A stretch of 46,456 bases of DNA from a virus (lineage: Duplodnaviria > Heunggongvirae > Uroviricota > Caudoviricetes): IMG/VR virus record IMGVR_UViG_2563366990_000004; one strand, written 5' to 3'. Numbering within the stretch: position 1 is the first letter of the stretch; every line of letters starts with the position of its first letter. The position numbers and the translations under genes were made by a program. This document shows, piece by piece, positions 2,057 through 21,511 of the stretch. The notes under the pieces are model-generated. The model ran no database searches. It saw only the letters and a program-made list of their open reading frames with translations, and was not told where the DNA came from.

Positions 2057-4495
2057 TTAAAAATCAGCCTGACTCGGGATCAGTTTTTGCCAGATAGCTG
2101 AAACGTATTTTGCCTGATAACGGGCGTCATCAAGTGCATTATGGCGCTCACCTTCGAATGGAATAGCCGTTCTGGCATCGAAGTCTATGGCTTTCCCCAG
2201 CTCAACGATTGTGCGTACATCGCGATCGTTGTAGTAACGCCACGGGCAGGGGATCCCCTGCCGTTCGTATGAACGGCGCAAAATCGTGTTGTCGAAGTTG
2301 GCTCCATTTCCCCAGACCTGAACAAAAAATTCACCGGAGTTTTCGTCGATAAATTCCCGCAGTTGTAACAGTGCATCATCTAACGGGATTTCATCGGTCA
2401 TAATGGCAGATTGCGCTTCGCGTGATTGCTTAAGCCACCATTTAATGGTGTCCCGATCAATGACTCCGCCAGCAGTTTCCAGATCGATAGTCTTACTAAA
2501 TTCCGGTCCCATATCTCCGGTTTGCGGATCGAAAAATATTGCACCTATTGAGATGATCGGGGCATTAGGATTTTTTCCCATGGTTTCAAGGTCGATCATT
2601 AGATGGTCACACGTCCTGCTGGTGGATGTGATTTCGTGATGACCGTTCACCGCAATTAAGGGATCTGCCGCTTCGCCAGTTTCACTATCGCTGGTGTGAT
2701 GCTGATCGTTACCAGCATTCTCATTGTTCGGATGTTCAGCGCCTTCTATTTCCTCCGGATCATCTTCCTGAACTTCAGCCTGATTTTTTTCATCGAATGT
2801 TTCCTGGTATGTTGCGTCGCCCATCACCGCGCCACAGTCAGGACAGTTGCCGCCACCGCTCTGACCGCAGGCGGTGCAGACTTTTTCCTCTTCCTGTTGC
2901 GCTACTGGTTCGGATTGTTTCGTTTCTGGCTCGTCTTGTAACGCATTTTGGCTGTTTTGTTCTGCTTTCTGGTCGTTCTGTTCCGTTTCTAGCTGGTTCT
3001 GGTTCACAGAATCGCAGGTTTCAATCCCCTTAACCCATTTCGAATCATTCGGGTCGCTAATCCCTTCAACAAACTCACCACGAGAAGCGGCAAGCAATTT
3101 GTCGGCATCTGGTCGACTGATGTCTGCTGCCTCCATAATTTTATTTACTTCTTCAGCGGTAACTTTTACCTGTGACTTGTCATCCAGCGGCTGCGGGTCC
3201 TGATGATGTTCAACTGTATCCGCTGCCATTGTTTCAGCCGTTGCCTGTTCATCTGCCATTGCGCCAGATGGTTGCGGGTTTTCTTCATCATTTTTTTCTT
3301 CTTCTGTTTTGCACTCAGCAGCCAGTCCGTCGTTAATTTCTTCCAGGATATCTTTTTCCGGTGTATGCCGGGCAGCCATGAGCGTTTCAGCTGTGGGATT
3401 CTCGTGATCAGTTTCTGTCAGGTTGGCATTGATATACCCCTGAAGGCGTCCCGGGTAGTGATAAAACTCAGGGTGGGCGCTCCGGATAAGTGCAAAAATA
3501 GCTGCGCGGGAATAGTCCAGGATACCAGGGGTTGCGCGAAGTGCTGCGGACCATTCCCTGAACGGACTTTCTTTTTTCAGGACGATTTCTTTTGCGCGAC
3601 GATAAACGCTCACGGGTATTTCATAAATATTAAAATCCATCGGAAGCGTGGCTGCTGCAGCCTCCACATCCAGAGTATCGAGGGTGTGTACTAAGTCAGG
3701 ATTACGATCGGTTTTATTTCCGCCACCGGCATTTGCACCGGAAGCCGTGCGGGTGATGCGAGAAACACGATTTCCTTTCATCCACTCTTTTGTCAGCAGA
3801 CCTCGATCGGTATAGTCAGCGTCCAGGTATGCTTCGAAAAAAGCAGTCATTAACCCCAGACTGGAATTAACGGGATTAGGGAAAACTTTGTCTGTGTCGC
3901 GTACCAGTTTATGAAGGTCGCGAATCTCCAGCGGGTCGAGCAGCTTTGTGTTGTGGGAAATAGCCAGGGCAGTAACAGCCGGCAGTTCTTCAGCTCGTGC
4001 GATATGTAATGCCTGAAGTTCTTCCCGTGAAACGTGCGTTACCGGTTTTTCGCTGCCATGTTGCGCAAGCCAGCGAATGGGTAGTTCCTGACCGGAAATT
4101 GGCAGGAGCATATTATCCTCAATCTCAGCCATGTCTTCGCCATTGACGTTGGTATTGTCAGTGCTGGCTGGTTTTTCCTGAACTGAGGGGGAAGGCGCTA
4201 TAAATATCATTGTGATGCCATCTTCCCCGCCTTTTTCATAGCGGTTGCAGAATTCAGTATCAAACACGCCTTCCGGTGGAAGGTCATTCACAACGGGGAA
4301 ATGGACGCGGACGGGTTTTTTGAAATCATCAGCGTCGTAGCCTGCCTCGTCCATTGCAACAACGCACCGCGAGATTGCTACAGATAATTTCTTTTCTGTA
4401 CTCCAGTAAAAACCCCCTTTAATCCCAAAGCGTTTTCTGACCTTGTCATTTTTTGCTTCGCAATATAGCGCAAATTCTTCTTTATCAGTGCTCAT
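2057..4495 (-). CDS. Large early-region exonuclease with C-terminal DnaQ-like (DEDDh) 3'-5' exonuclease domain; central acidic low-complexity linker and CxxC…CxxC zinc ribbon
   Basis: 812-aa ORF. C-terminal 180 aa contain IDLETMG … NGANFD … HNALDDA motifs typical of DnaQ/RNase T-like exonucleases. Sits where Rac carries recE; no RecT/Bet-like annealase gene is visible nearby. Confidence 0.7.
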   Translation of the reverse strand: MSTDKEEFALYCEAKNDKVRKRFGIKGGFYWSTEKKLSVAISRCVVAMDEAGYDADDFKKPVRVHFPVVNDLPPEGVFDTEFCNRYEKGGEDGITMIFIAPSPSVQEKPASTDNTNVNGEDMAEIEDNMLLPISGQELPIRWLAQHGSEKPVTHVSREELQALHIARAEELPAVTALAISHNTKLLDPLEIRDLHKLVRDTDKVFPNPVNSSLGLMTAFFEAYLDADYTDRGLLTKEWMKGNRVSRITRTASGANAGGGNKTDRNPDLVHTLDTLDVEAAAATLPMDFNIYEIPVSVYRRAKEIVLKKESPFREWSAALRATPGILDYSRAAIFALIRSAHPEFYHYPGRLQGYINANLTETDHENPTAETLMAARHTPEKDILEEINDGLAAECKTEEEKNDEENPQPSGAMADEQATAETMAADTVEHHQDPQPLDDKSQVKVTAEEVNKIMEAADISRPDADKLLAASRGEFVEGISDPNDSKWVKGIETCDSVNQNQLETEQNDQKAEQNSQNALQDEPETKQSEPVAQQEEEKVCTACGQSGGGNCPDCGAVMGDATYQETFDEKNQAEVQEDDPEEIEGAEHPNNENAGNDQHHTSDSETGEAADPLIAVNGHHEITSTSRTCDHLMIDLETMGKNPNAPIISIGAIFFDPQTGDMGPEFSKTIDLETAGGVIDRDTIKWWLKQSREAQSAIMTDEIPLDDALLQLREFIDENSGEFFVQVWGNGANFDNTILRRSYERQGIPCPWRYYNDRDVRTIVELGKAIDFDARTAIPFEGERHNALDDARYQAKYVSAIWQKLIPSQADF

Positions 4496-4961: not shown

Positions 4962-5446
4962 TATCGTGTCCTCAACAATGAATTTTGTGATGTGGTGCCT
5001 GGTGCCTCCAGGTGACGTTAACCAGTTAACAATTAACGCCGGAATACAGAAGGATGCCCGTTACGCCCCGTAAAAGACCACTTTACGGATTTAACTGTTC
5101 CGCGTGCGCATAGCCGCATTCACCGCATCACAAAATTCACTTTAAAAAGGATGGCAGAGCAGTCATGGAGTCGAACTGATGCCACCAAAGACTACACATG
5201 GATATTGTGGCGGGGCTGTCACTTAAGCGTATGGTCAGCCTGACAACCCGGTGTCCTCAAGGGGAAGGAATAACCCCGCCATACTTACCGCCGCGCCATT
5301 TCGCGGATTGCCACAACCGGAAGCGCACGGTCGAATTAAATTTAACGACAAAGTACAGAGAGACGAGCTTCTCCGTGCGCTTTCGTGTTATGCCCTGACT
5401 TTTCAGGGTAAATTAACCAGTGGCAACCTGTTTTTACTGGTGCTAA

Positions 5447-5653
5447 TCAGTTAGTGTTTCTGGCTAACCAGCGACGCGCGCCAGCTTCGGTTTTAAACTT
5501 TTTACTTTTGGTATACGTCATCGCGGTAAACGTGCCGTCCTGGTTAGGGAACACACCGCATACCAGAGATTCGTTGTTGCCAAGATTGAGCGTATCCATG
5601 TTGACCTCATTTCCCCTTAACGCCGGGGTAGCGGAACAAAAAACCTGCTGCAT
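5447..5653 (-). CDS. Hypothetical small early-left protein (first leftward gene after the OL-like operator; possible shorter product from internal Met at 5599)
   Basis: 68-aa ORF; position equivalent to the first pL-transcribed gene of lambdoid phages but not Arg-rich N-like. Confidence 0.35.
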   Translation of the reverse strand: MQQVFCSATPALRGNEVNMDTLNLGNNESLVCGVFPNQDGTFTAMTYTKSKKFKTEAGARRWLARNTN

Positions 5654-5764
5654 AGTTAAACGTAATCCCCGCCGTCATGTTCATACGCCTCAGGCTGGCT
5701 ACTTAACCCCTGACCACTGCCGGGTAACTCGAAGTATTGCCCTGCGTTCTGTGGGTCGGGGTGG

Positions 5765-5830
5765 GTGTATGGATACAATTTACAAATTAAAATTTAACTG
5801 GTCAACATGTTTATTATTAAATTTGTAATT
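5765..5830. promoter_or_regulatory. OL-like operator/promoter region with inverted repeat TTACAAAT … ATTTGTAA
   Basis: TTACAAAT at 5780-5787 and ATTTGTAA at 5821-5828 in an AT-rich spacer; the same half-sites recur between the repressor and cro-like genes (7033-7070). Confidence 0.4.
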
Positions 5831-5873
5831 GCGAGCTGTTGCATTAGTCCCAAAATGGGACTACTATACAGTT

Positions 5874-6176
5874 ATGAAGATTATCTCAGTTAAAACACTC
5901 AGGGATTTTTGGGCGGAGAATCCTGATGCAGAACAACCGCTAAGGGCATGGGTGGATGAGGCGGCAAAAGCTGACTGGAAAAGCCCAGCAGACATTAAGG
6001 CACAATACCGAACGGCCAGTATATTGAAAAACCGGCGCGTGGTATTCAACGTAAAAGGTAATCATTACCGTTTAATTGTTGCAATTGCGTATCAGCGAGG
6101 ATGGGTATTTGTTAAATTCATCGGAAACCACAAGGAATACGATGCTATTGATGCTGATACCATCGAACTGGAGTAA
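5874..6176 (+). CDS. higB: HigB-family type II toxin (mRNA interferase)
   Basis: Product MKIISVKTLRDFW…VFNVKGNHYRLIVAIAYQRGWVFVKFIGNHKEYD matches the HigB signature (compare E. coli HigB …VFNVGGNELRVVAMV…HKEYD). Toxin-first order, stop 2 nt before the antitoxin start. The track ORF begins at a TTG (5829); ATG 5874 preferred. Confidence 0.8.
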   Translation: MKIISVKTLRDFWAENPDAEQPLRAWVDEAAKADWKSPADIKAQYRTASILKNRRVVFNVKGNHYRLIVAIAYQRGWVFVKFIGNHKEYDAIDADTIELE

Positions 6177-6178
6177 GC

Positions 6179-6538
6179 ATGAACATCAAACCTATTCGTA
6201 CAGAGCAAGATTATGAAGCCGCGTTGCGTGCTGTTGAACCCATGTTCGACAATGAGCCCGAAATTGACACGCCTGAGGGGGATTTTTTTGAGGTGATGTG
6301 TTTGCTAATAGAGGAATATGAAAAAAAACATTATCCCATTGAGCCACCATCCCCAATTGAAGCTATAAGATTTCGCATGGAACAGCAGGGGCTGACTGTG
6401 AAAGATTTGGAACCCGCAATTGGGAAAAAAAATCGGGTTTATGAGGTGTTGAATGGTACCAGAAGCCTTACGTTACCAATGATTCGCCGTCTTCATAATC
6501 AATTTGGTATCCCCCTGGAAAGCCTGGTTGGATTATAA
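6179..6538 (+). CDS. higA: HigA-family antitoxin (XRE-type HTH)
   Basis: 119 aa; C-terminal HTH LTVKDLEPAIGKKNRVYEVLNGTRSLTLPMIRRLHNQFGIP resembles E. coli HigA (LTLSDLPEIGSKSMVSRVLSGKRKLTLEHAKKLATRFGIS); tightly coupled to higB. Confidence 0.8.
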   Translation: MNIKPIRTEQDYEAALRAVEPMFDNEPEIDTPEGDFFEVMCLLIEEYEKKHYPIEPPSPIEAIRFRMEQQGLTVKDLEPAIGKKNRVYEVLNGTRSLTLPMIRRLHNQFGIPLESLVGL

Positions 6539-6584
6539 AATCTGCTAGTCATTTGCCTGATGCTCGTTCCAGAAAAGGAATGCA

Positions 6585-6983
6585 TCAGGCAGTTTTGTTT
6601 TTCTGCCGCAGTAACTCTTCAAGTTTCCGTTTATAGAAATCGCGTTTTTGCTCCATATCACGAATGATCTGCTCTGCGTCGCTTTGAGGTAACTCATCTA
6701 AAAGCGATATGATTTTTCGTTGTTGTTCTGTAAGTTGCGGTTGGTTGTCATTACTGGATACAGCCATTTTATCGCCGAGAGTTTCTTCTTCCATAAAGAA
6801 CCAATGGACGGGATGTTGTGAGAGCTCTGCTAATTTTTCCAGTTTATCCATTCTTGGCATCACGCCTTTCAACCAACCTTGCACGGATTGGGGTTTTACA
6901 CCAAGACGTCTTCCCAGCTCTGACTGGTTTATATTCAATTCCTGCAACACCTGCTGAAGGCGTTTTACAAAGATCATCACCAC
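6585..6983 (-). CDS. Prophage repressor, XRE-family HTH without peptidase domain (RacR/DicA-like, CI functional analogue)
   Basis: 132 aa, N-terminal HTH (LNINQSELGRRLGVKPQSVQGWLKG); divergently transcribed from a Cro/YdaS-like gene across a 120-bp operator region. Confidence 0.75.
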   Translation of the reverse strand: MVMIFVKRLQQVLQELNINQSELGRRLGVKPQSVQGWLKGVMPRMDKLEKLAELSQHPVHWFFMEEETLGDKMAVSSNDNQPQLTEQQRKIISLLDELPQSDAEQIIRDMEQKRDFYKRKLEELLRQKNKTA

Positions 6984-7103
6984 CCCTCGTAAACTAGTTC
7001 CGCGATCCTACAGAAAAAATTGATAAGTGGCATTACAAATAGAAGTTGAAATTTAAATTTAAATTTGTAATCATCGGTGTCATCGTAAAGTTCGGAGGGA
7101 AAC
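6984..7103. promoter_or_regulatory. OR-like divergent promoter/operator region between repressor and cro-like gene
   Basis: Inverted repeat TTACAAAT (7033-7040) … ATTTGTAA (7063-7070) with AAATTTAAATTTAAATTT between; candidate rightward promoter TTGAAA (7046-7051) with AATCAT 17 nt downstream. Confidence 0.45.
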
Positions 7104-7364
7104 ATGCAAAAAAGTACTCAAGTGAAAATCCTGTCAATAATGAGCCAATCAGAATTAGGGCGTCGTCTTGGTAAAACACCGCAAACCATAAGTGGGTGGT
7201 TTAAAAAACGAGTGCCAGCGGAGGAGGTTATACCAGCATGTGAGGCGCTTGACTGGGGAGTAACTCCGCATGAATTGCGCCCTGATAAATACCCTAATCC
7301 AACCGATGGTTTACCTGTTGAGTATCAGGCTAACGCACAAGCAGCGGCGGGAGTTGATTCATGA
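7104..7364 (+). CDS. Cro-like DNA-binding protein (YdaS family)
   Basis: 86 aa; HTH SQSELGRRLGKTPQTISGWF and the YdaS-type motif WGVTPHELRPDKYP; first rightward gene after the operator. Confidence 0.7.
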   Translation: MQKSTQVKILSIMSQSELGRRLGKTPQTISGWFKKRVPAEEVIPACEALDWGVTPHELRPDKYPNPTDGLPVEYQANAQAAAGVDS

Positions 7365-7798
7365 AAATCAAGCATGAGCACATCCGCATGGCGATGAATG
7401 CGTGGCTGCTTTATCCGAGGGTAGGGCGCAAAAAAATCGCTGATGATATAGCGACAGCATATTTTGAGCTTGAAATGACTTATCCACCAATGCATGACAC
7501 CTCTACGACAGAGGGTATTGGATTGAATATACAAAATATTTTTCGCTGGCTTGAAAAGGATACGCCTGATGCTGTTGAAAAAATTCAGGCACTAATTCCG
7601 GCTATCCTGACTGTTCTTCCGCGTGAACTGCGTTATCACCTCAGTATTTTTGACACTGTTGAGCGCCGTGCATTACTGGCGGCGCAGGAAGCGTTGAGCA
7701 CGGCAATTGATGCACATGATGATGCTGTCCAGGCCGTTTACCGGAAAGCGTATTTCAGCGACGGCGGGTCATCCGGCGAGTCTGTTGTGGTGCATTGA
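7361..7798 (+). CDS. YdaT-family protein (CII-like regulator position)
   Basis: 145 aa, overlapping start/stop with the YdaS-like gene; same racR-ydaS-ydaT arrangement as the Rac prophage. Confidence 0.65.
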   Translation: MKIKHEHIRMAMNAWLLYPRVGRKKIADDIATAYFELEMTYPPMHDTSTTEGIGLNIQNIFRWLEKDTPDAVEKIQALIPAILTVLPRELRYHLSIFDTVERRALLAAQEALSTAIDAHDDAVQAVYRKAYFSDGGSSGESVVVH

Positions 7799-20556: not shown

Positions 20557-20795
20557 CTCACAATTCAGACGGTTGACAGTTGTCTGTTTTGCGGGGAGTT
20601 TGTTAAAAGAAACTGGCATGGTGAATCCCCCTGAGCGGAGGGGCGACTGGTGCATCAGGTGTTATCTTTGATACCCAGGAAAGTGAACGCGCGGGTTCGG
20701 TGGCACCGGGCTGAACTCACCGGGAGGCACCCGGCACTATGCGCATGATGTACAGATACGCGGCTTCAGCCCCTCTCCGGAGGGGCTTTTCTGTG
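20557..20795 (+). repeat. Repeat unit A (~240 bp) ending in an intrinsic terminator
   Basis: Starts CTCACAATTCAGACGGTTGACAGTTGTCTG; internal hairpin CCCCCTGAGCGGAGGGG; shared block GCGGGTTCGGTGGCACCGGGCTGAACTCACCGGGAGGCACCCGGCA; ends CAGCCCCTCTCCGGAGGGGCTTTTCT. Confidence 0.6.
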
Positions 20796-21042
20796 CCTTA
20801 TGCATCACAGTTTCTGGAACCCTGAGTACTACAGTATCAGTCAGGGTGCTATATTTGCAGATGTGATGAAAGCCTGCCGGCAGGCAGGGCGTATCGGAAA
20901 TGACCCAGTAAGAGAAAACGTTGACTCAGATACCGGTGCTGAGTTACCGGGAAACCGGCATCACATGACCGCTATCCTTCATGGCTCTCTCAGGAGAGCC
21001 TTTTTACTGGAGAAAACCGCTTCCCCGTAAAATGCCGTGTTG

Positions 21043-21282
21043 CTCACAATTCAGTCAGTTGAAGGTTGTCTGCCCGACTGAGAATTTGTTAAAAAATTTC
21101 TGCATGATGAATCCCCCTGTGCGGAGGGGCGGCTGGTGTACGGAATGGTCTCTGATGATCGTTAGCGAGAATGACGCGGGTTCGGTGGCACCGGGCTGAA
21201 CTCACCGGGAGGCACCCGGCATCATGTAATGAACGGTACATAGCGCTACTCTTCAGCCCCTCTCCGGAGGGGCTTTCTTATG
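21043..21282 (+). repeat. Repeat unit B (~240 bp), diverged copy of unit A, ending in an intrinsic terminator
   Basis: CTCACAATTCAGTCAGTTGAAGGTTGTCTG…CCCCCTGTGCGGAGGGG…GCGGGTTCGGTGGCACCGGGCTGAACTCACCGGGAGGCACCCGGCA…CAGCCCCTCTCCGGAGGGGCTTTCTT; a further hairpin with minus-strand terminator polarity at 21290-21315. Confidence 0.6.
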
Positions 21283-21511
21283 GATAAAAAAAGCCCGCAT
21301 GGTGAGATGCGGGCAGCAAGGAATAAACAACAAAACGTGAAGTAATCAATTTTTCAGCTGGCGAATAATACCCGACAGTAATCACTCTGCGCAACTGCGC
21401 GGCCTTTTTCGTATTGCGGGCTGTAGTCTTCCTCCTGCCATTGTCCTGTAACTTCCGGACTTCAGCCCGCCCCTCATCTGACTCACAACATTATCCCGAC
21501 CGGGAGGATTC

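Follow-up and report, generated by a model that had tools for sequence, protein, structure and literature searches.

Two matching inverted repeats in the immunity region of an Escherichia coli prophage very probably serve as left and right operators for its DicA-like repressor, with higBA as self-contained cargo between them

Toxin-antitoxin (TA) and defence cargo beside prophage repressors is already well documented, and the closest precedent for the locus described here is the paaR2-paaA2-parE2 module of CP-933P, which has the same prophage backbone and carries its TA pair in the same slot. In CP-933P, PaaR2 and YdaS bind the right operator region (OR), and both repress the leftward early promoter (PL), which carries matching operators (PMC8630535); YdaT is the CII analogue of this prophage (PMC8630535, PMC9986795). 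Here we analysed the IMG/VR record IMGVR_UViG_2563366990_000004, a 46,456-nucleotide stretch of DNA from a virus of the Caudoviricetes (hereafter the window, meaning the whole stretch), and in particular the region around positions 5765-7103, where a higB-higA (higBA) TA pair lies between two similar inverted repeats. These repeats are very probably the left operator region (OL) and the OR of the DicA-like repressor of an E. coli prophage, and the higBA pair between them is very probably self-contained cargo. We found no literature description of this particular arrangement of higBA and immunity region, although it changes no concept in a field where such cargo is familiar.

The original prediction placed an inverted repeat, TTACAAAT…ATTTGTAA, at positions 5780-5828 and again at 7033-7070, and both sets of coordinates are exact. 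Where 1.4 copies of the octamer TTACAAAT would be expected in the window, there are five, and four of these are the arms of the two repeats, namely, 5780-5787 (+), 5821-5828 (-), 7033-7040 (+) and 7063-7070 (-); the fifth, at 1884, is isolated and has no partner arm. The likeness extends past the octamer, as the 18-mer at 5780-5797 (TTACAAATTAAAATTTAA) is 94% complementary to positions 7053-7070, with a single mismatch. When up to three mismatches are allowed, the pattern TTACAAATTWAAATTTAA has four matches in the window, all within the two repeats, against 0.06 expected. We evaluated the shared 18-mer using shuffles that preserved dinucleotides, applied first to the whole of both intergenic regions and then to their A+T-rich cores alone (about 80% A+T), and an 18-mer with at most one mismatch was found in none of the shuffles in either case (0/2000 and 0/2000). 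A generic scan of IMG/VR for TTACAAAT-N15-40-ATTTGTAA was uninformative, since it returned only chance matches in A+T-rich contigs; the sole locus with two matches in that scan (L115) was rejected as a duplicated coding sequence.

The repeats are better read as two sites of about 18 bp in each region than as one long palindrome made of two half-sites. On this reading OL would comprise OL1 (TTACAAATTAAAATTTAA, 5780-5797, plus strand) and OL2 (5811-5828, TTACAAATTTAATAATAA on the minus strand), and OR would comprise site a (TTACAAATAGAAGTTGAA, 7033-7050, plus strand), on the side of the repressor gene, and site b (7053-7070, TTACAAATTTAAATTTAA on the minus strand). The best-conserved half of each site, ATTACAAAT, faces outward. 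From centre to centre, the two sites are separated by 31 bp at OL and by 20 bp at OR; both distances are near whole helical turns and would suit cooperative binding. A consensus scan returned a candidate PL on the minus strand at 5777-5805 (TTGACC at 5805-5800, a 17-nt spacer and TAAATT at 5782-5777), and a candidate rightward early promoter (PR) on the plus strand at 7046-7074 (TTGAAA, a 17-nt spacer and AATCAT, with an upstream TG). The two candidates superimpose base for base through the shared 18-mer. OL1, the best-conserved block of the OL alignment, lies over the spacer and -10 of the candidate PL, and OR site b extends over the spacer of the candidate PR and into the first part of its -10. 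The second site of each region is on the far side of the -35, with OL2 upstream of the PL -35 and OR site a overlapping the PR -35. A TTGAC -35 and a TAGATT or TAAATT -10 are kept in the OL regions of Salmonella, Sodalis, Arsenophonus and Phlomobacter.

Pfam matches agree with the gene calls made earlier for this region, i.e., higB, higA, a repressor on the opposite strand and a Cro-like gene. The repressor (130 amino acids, 6585-6977, minus strand; HTH_3, E-value 6e-9) has an N-terminal helix-turn-helix (HTH) domain and a DicA-like C-terminal part, and Pfam gives it HTH_3 and HTH_26 only, with no S24 (LexA-like) self-cleavage domain. It matches the DicA model NF007257 over its full length yet below threshold (E-value 2.7e-13, about 50 bits against a cut-off of 101), and judged from this comparison it is not a DicA orthologue. 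The Cro analogue, which belongs to the YdaS family (86 amino acids, 7104-7364, plus strand; PF15943), is divergent from the repressor gene across an intergenic region of 126 bp (6978-7103), and is followed by a gene for a YdaT family protein (7361-7798, plus strand; PF06254). The HTH domains of the repressor and Cro are 58% identical over 26 residues (E-value 2e-9), and comparison of the HigA HTH with these two showed no similarity.

Homologues of the repressor, from 100% down to 47% identity, have an invariant recognition helix, VKPQSVQGWL, and the OR repeat (ATTACARAT … ATTTGYAAT) lies between ydaS and the repressor gene at all of their loci. The content of the slot next to the repressor gene varies. 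It holds higBA on the opposite strand in E. coli (89% repressor identity) and Salmonella (74%), a 424-residue PLD-domain protein on the repressor's strand in Salmonella diarizonae (locus L198), a PaaA2-like gene with a TM2 protein in a second Salmonella locus, and two small open reading frames in Serratia; it is empty in Sodalis, Arsenophonus and Phlomobacter. All five loci found by scanning species-representative genomes with the repressor alignment belong to the last two genera. Past the slot, a second repeat with an embedded TTGAC -35 is present in the E. coli loci, in Salmonella locus L196, and in Sodalis, Arsenophonus and Phlomobacter. In the last two of these genera, which lack higBA, OL begins only about 60-70 bp past the repressor stop codon. 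The Arsenophonus OL reads AATTACAAATTAAATTATAAATCATGTTGACAGTTTAAATTTTAATTTGTAGATT against AATTACAAATTTAATAATAAACATGTTGACCAGTTAAATTTTAATTTGTAAATT for the window OL on the minus strand, with unrelated flanks; the paired motif is kept with the repressor down to about 50% protein identity as the flanks diverge. Three heteroimmune sister prophages that share the ydfA and ydaT flanks of the window served as controls, namely, L216 (with an HTH repressor), L217 (of the CP-933P PaaR2 type) and L218 (of the RacR type), and T[AG]CA[AG]AT clusters are absent from all three. In each, the OL-equivalent and OR-equivalent regions have a motif of their own in common: AATGTACT/AGTACATT at about 675-720 and 1236-1260 in L216, AAAAACTGTTGA at about 640-665 and 1672-1690 in L217, and TTGTCAATAGGCTATGCCTAAT at about 655-680 and 1300-1325 in L218.

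HigA and HigB homologues (72-94% identity) also occur in non-lambdoid phage contigs, between structural-looking genes. The TTACAAAT repeat is absent from the upstream regions of these non-lambdoid pairs. A GTCCC-N5-GGGAC palindrome is present in all of them, flanked by a -35-like and a -10-like hexamer, and in most of them it is repeated 31 bp farther upstream. In the window, the palindrome GTCCCAAAATGGGAC is found exactly at 5847-5861, and this is its sole match even when two mismatches are allowed; no further HigA palindrome that would hint at cross-regulation of the switch was found elsewhere in the window. The placement of the palindrome ahead of higB is unchanged in homologues that are 72-98% identical, whether their surroundings are lambdoid or not. 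On the basis of these comparisons, the sister controls and the likeness of the HTH domains, we therefore assign the TTACAAAT repeats to the repressor and Cro, and the GTCCC…GGGAC palindrome to HigA. The sequence features, their significance and their co-inheritance are computed results. They bear out the earlier proposal that the repeats would be OL- and OR-type operators of one repressor, as the repeats travel with the repressor across genera, are absent from the heteroimmune sisters, and overlap the PL and PR candidates.

The higBA pair has the toxin gene first and the antitoxin gene immediately after it on the same strand. HigB (100 amino acids, 5874-6176, plus strand) is a RelE-superfamily toxin of the E. 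coli K-12 YgjN type, and matches PF09907 over profile positions 1-74 of 74 (E-value 1.7e-32); the actual ATG is at 5874. HigA (119 amino acids, 6179-6538, plus strand) is an antitoxin with a C-terminal XRE-type HTH (HTH_3 at residues 63-115). A candidate higBA promoter can be read from the sequence at 5839-5867 on the plus strand (TTGCAT at 5839-5844, a 17-nt spacer and TACTAT at 5862-5867), with the palindrome, a putative HigA operator, in its spacer, and all higBA homologues have comparable hexamers on either side of the palindrome. The higB ATG lies 6 nt past the -10; this distance is 6-7 nt in the window and the diverged homologues L061, L062 and L196, without a Shine-Dalgarno sequence. 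The higB mRNA of the window is therefore likely to lack a leader, and the same may hold for part of the family. A fourth group of homologues (L049-L054) has a longer higB leader with AAGGA. At the other end of the pair, a hairpin at 6553-6592 (-23.5 kcal/mol, z -3.1, perfect 10-nt arms) followed by GUUUUGUUUUUCU makes up a likely intrinsic terminator of higBA (6553-6604, plus strand). The right arm of the hairpin includes the repressor stop codon, and the U-tract of the terminator is the complement of the repressor's conserved C-terminal Lys/Asn codons, so that the convergent genes share bases (6585-6604). Read on the minus strand, the hairpin has no U-tract after it, and the repressor transcript may therefore run into higBA as antisense. 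The pair lies on the strand opposite to the repressor gene, between its 3' end and the left repeat, with the repressor stop at 6585, higBA at 5874-6538 and the end of OL2 at 5828. This is the slot equivalent to that of rexAB in lambda, as had been proposed, and the cargo limits are about 5829-6584.

The reading that we favour, with a probability of roughly 0.8, is a lambda-like switch made up of the DicA-like repressor, the YdaS-type Cro and YdaT, with OL and OR as mapped above, and with higBA as autonomous, autoregulated cargo expressed in the lysogen. The locus would be the immunity region of a Rac/Qin-like lambdoid E. coli prophage. A non-cleavable DicA-like repressor and a YdaS-type Cro would be transcribed divergently from OR (7033-7070), and the same operator motif would act at OL (5780-5828), over the PL of the ydfA-ydfB-ydfC-DicF-dicB operon. 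With one site per region over the spacer and -10 of PL or PR, bound repressor would shut both early operons, and Cro, with its near-identical HTH, would bind the repressor's sites. The higBA pair would have been inserted between the repressor stop codon and OL2, and its transcription would run towards the repressor gene from a promoter of its own, probably giving a leaderless mRNA. Autoregulation of the pair would be exerted by HigA or the HigB-HigA complex via GTCCCAAAATGGGAC in the promoter spacer, and the hairpin over the repressor stop codon would end the transcript, so that higBA would be constitutive in the lysogen and largely independent of the switch. The binding partners, transcription starts and higBA function in this scheme are predicted from sequence and comparison. 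As for function, we infer a role in addiction, stabilising the immunity region or the prophage, or in aborting infection by other phages.

Several points weigh against this reading. Most of the E. coli copies of the module are more than 99% identical, so that they lend little independent support. Two Salmonella loci (L198 and L200) and the Serratia locus (L206) have the OR repeat but no clear OL cluster. The hexamers of the candidate higBA promoter are weak (7/12) and fall under the threshold of the consensus scan. Moreover, cross-talk between the repressor and higBA through OL2 is possible, because OL2 ends only 10 bp from the higBA -35 (the gap is 5829-5838) and the Salmonella module, though diverged (79% HigB identity), has a gap of the same length with a different sequence.

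The last point bears on the remaining part of the original prediction, that higBA is under lysogeny-linked control. In its full form, the repressor at the left repeat would also repress or activate higBA, and expression of the pair would follow the lysogenic or induced state. Besides the conserved distance from OL2 (5811-5828) to the higBA -35, the second HigA palindrome of the non-lambdoid contexts would speak for it, since OL2 occupies roughly the place of that palindrome in the window, as would CP-933P, where a TA pair in the same slot is under a CI-like regulator (PMC8630535). However, the higBA pair retains its own palindrome and promoter-like hexamers, just as it does in contexts without such a repressor or the TTACAAAT repeat; lying on the opposite strand, it cannot be co-transcribed with the repressor gene; and HigA, unlike PaaA2, has its own HTH. 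The centre of OL2 is also about 54 bp upstream of the likely higB start, a position typical neither of repression nor of activation of the lambda PRM type. Lysogeny-linked control is thus left without support, and we consider it unlikely; with its own promoter-like site and a palindrome that travels with it, higBA comes close to the case of an unrelated autoregulated promoter, which had been named beforehand as counting against the prediction. A narrower form of this idea, which we hold to be a little more doubtful still, is that the captured higBA lost its distal HigA operator, OL2 took its place, and the repressor or Cro co-regulates the pair together with HigA. If this were true, loss of the repressor by induction, superinfection or replacement of the immunity region would shift the HigA:HigB ratio and free the mRNA-cleaving toxin, and the TA pair would be a sensor of the state of the switch.

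Two further explanations concern the repeats themselves. They might be operators of HigA or the HigB-HigA complex, in which case the antitoxin would regulate both its own operon and the repressor/cro switch; in its favour are the XRE-type HTH of HigA and the position of the left repeat ahead of higB. But OR and OL carry the repeats in loci of Arsenophonus, Phlomobacter and Sodalis from which higBA is absent, higBA homologues elsewhere are without the repeats, and the HigA HTH is unlike that of either the repressor or Cro, which makes this explanation very improbable. Even less credible, to the point of being negligible, is a chance resemblance of two A+T-rich promoter regions with no common binding protein. 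Both cores are indeed about 80% A+T, and the generic repeat scan produced many unrelated matches in viral contigs, but the observed 18-mer match was never reached in shuffles of these very cores, and the motif pair is conserved with the repressor over a range in which the flanks diverge, while being absent from the heteroimmune relatives. The repeats as operators of the repressor, with higBA as autonomous cargo, therefore remain our preferred reading.

A megablast survey of 5426 complete E. coli genomes found the module 5775-7360 in 148 of them; identity exceeded 99% in most, and the carriers include O26:H11 11368 and O103 and O111 strains. The repressor without higBA, or higBA without the repressor, was found in none of these genomes by megablast (148 and 148), and distant relatives were therefore needed to part the two. 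Many other E. coli records match the query 5400-7400 only at query positions ~213-370 and ~1985-2001. Such flank-only prophages, which share ~5612-5770 and the start of ydaT, hold other repressors between the flanks, so that ~5775-7360 appears as an exchangeable immunity cassette, with the left repeat right at its left edge. Among complete E. coli genomes, about 3% thus carry the immunity type described here (O26, O103 and O111 strains among them), and the map given above covers its repressor, Cro analogue, OL and OR sites, candidate promoters and exact cargo limits. The slot itself, from the repressor gene to OL, is an exchange point, occupied in relatives by higBA, by paaA2-parE2, by a gene for a PLD-family nuclease-like protein, or by nothing.

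With regard to the other contents of this slot, the PLD-domain protein of S. diarizonae (L198, 3506-4780) has a rexAB-like orientation and weak matches to defence nucleases, among them DrmC, DpdK and ZacB; it is possibly the product of a repressor-linked defence gene. Among the non-lambdoid contigs, L055-L060 and L064-L072 (at ~2230-3360) carry a HigA 93% identical to that of the window on its own, without its HigB, directly after an unrelated pair of a RelE-type HigB and a VapI-type HigA; in L064-L072 this lone HigA is reduced to its first 65 residues.

On the repressor side of OR, the block CTACAGAAAAAATTGATAAG (7005-7027) adjoins the operator region and is conserved among relatives from E. 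coli and Salmonella. Possible roles are a promoter for the repressor gene itself and a site for YdaT, the CII-like protein; the block does not match the published YdaT site TTGATT-N6-AATCAA. For the promoter for repressor maintenance (PRM), a leftward ATGACA-16-TAAATT at 7083-7056 was set aside, as its -35 varies even among 95%-identical E. coli variants; ATGCCA-17-TAGGAT at ~7031-7003, picked out by eye, is a tentative alternative candidate. On the left, a G-rich leader (…GTGGGTCGGGGTGGGT…, 5612-5770, minus strand) between the candidate PL and ydfA is common to the heteroimmune sister prophages and about 90% conserved across different immunity regions, and its right end is the left boundary of the immunity module. 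It adjoins the OL-equivalent in L216 and L217 as well, and could be a leader or antitermination element of the leftward operon. This operon is led by a ydfA-like gene (DUF1391; 5447-5599, minus strand; Pfam E-value 3.9e-29), for which RefSeq annotates a 153-nt coding sequence in a 99.8% identical record. DicF RNA is encoded at 5149-5200, also on the minus strand, and the operon is therefore of the Qin ydfABC-dicF-dicB kind, i.e., ydfA-ydfB-ydfC-DicF-dicB; dicB is annotated in a near-identical record.

Farther from the immunity region, an 812-residue open reading frame (2057-4495, minus strand) has a long acidic low-complexity middle and an exonuclease-like C-terminus; the annotation of its counterpart is exonuclease/RecE family, and some related records have this gene in split form or as a pseudogene. 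Rfam identifies a sok antitoxin RNA at 13916-14088 (110.8 bits), and a near-identical record has a Hok/Gef family gene on the rightward side, between the replication genes and the antiterminator Q gene; the prophage thus has a second TA system, of type I. Two tandem copies of the small RNA STnc100 are located at 20587-20796 (141.8 bits) and 21073-21285 (164.6 bits).

Compared with known systems, the locus resembles the lambda cI-rexA-rexB region in the placement of cargo, here predicted to be expressed in the lysogen as rexAB is, past the 3' end of the repressor gene and before OL/PL, and in that OL and OR share one operator family. The likeness is positional only. In lambda, rexAB shares a transcript with cI, and its sequence is unrelated to that of higBA. 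Furthermore, lambda CI has an S24 self-cleavage domain, whereas the window repressor does not, and lambda has three 17-bp operators per region where the window has two clear sites. The full-length sub-threshold match to DicA and the ydfA-type leftward operon with DicF recall the DicA/DicC region of Qin. In Qin, the repressor gene is directly followed by the promoter of the ydfA operon, a layout that resembles the empty slot of Arsenophonus; unlike the window, Qin is not known to have a TA pair between dicA and ydfA.

The higBA pair itself has two points of comparison. The HigB-HigA pair of E. coli K-12 (YgjN/YgjM; PDB 5IFG, 5YCL and 6KML) belongs to the same Pfam HigB family and has the same toxin-first order and an antitoxin with a C-terminal HTH, and it is distantly similar in sequence (HigB to 5IFG/5YCL, E-value 2e-7; HigA to 5IFG_B/5YCL_A, E-value 3e-9); unlike the window pair, it is chromosomal and lies outside a prophage immunity region. 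Far closer than the K-12 pair are PD-lambda-2 A and the N-terminal domain of PD-lambda-2 B, as HigB matches the PADLOC profile PD-Lambda-2_A over positions 1-96 of 97 (E-value 3e-40) and HigA matches PD-Lambda-2_B over positions 1-119 of 402 only (E-value 1.7e-42). PD-lambda-2 is an anti-phage (anti-lambda) system of three components (Vassallo et al. 2022; PMC9519451). Its B component has a C-terminal peptidase and is itself toxic, the C component, which is P4 antitoxin-like, is needed for defence, and the HigB-like protein is not the toxic part (PMC9519451). There is no PD-lambda-2 C gene at the window locus, where higA is followed by the convergent repressor gene with no open reading frame between them. 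Membership of higBA in PD-lambda-2 was rejected, as both the B peptidase fusion and the C gene are missing.

The closest match overall is with CP-933P, where the repressor is likewise a non-cleavable HTH protein of the CI-like kind, YdaS and YdaT are the Cro and CII analogues, and a TA pair lies between the repressor gene and OL. Its type is represented by L217, which has an HTH regulator, a RelB-annotated antitoxin and a RelE/ParE toxin within the ydfA and ydaT flanks that are also found here. The published operator consensus of PaaR2 is GTTTAGTAA (PMC8630535), and the OL and OR of L217 share AAAAACTGTTGA, as given above. PaaR2, which starts with MQKKE, is a different protein from the window repressor and has different operators; the identification of the window repressor as PaaR2 was rejected on both its N-terminus and its operators. 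The cargo differs as well, since paaA2-parE2 is co-transcribed with the repressor gene and PaaA2 has no DNA-binding domain, whereas the window higBA is on the opposite strand and has an HTH antitoxin and its own palindrome. The two prophages thus form a natural comparison, in which the slot and the backbone are the same, but the TA pair of the window, instead of relying on the phage repressor, appears to have kept its own regulation.

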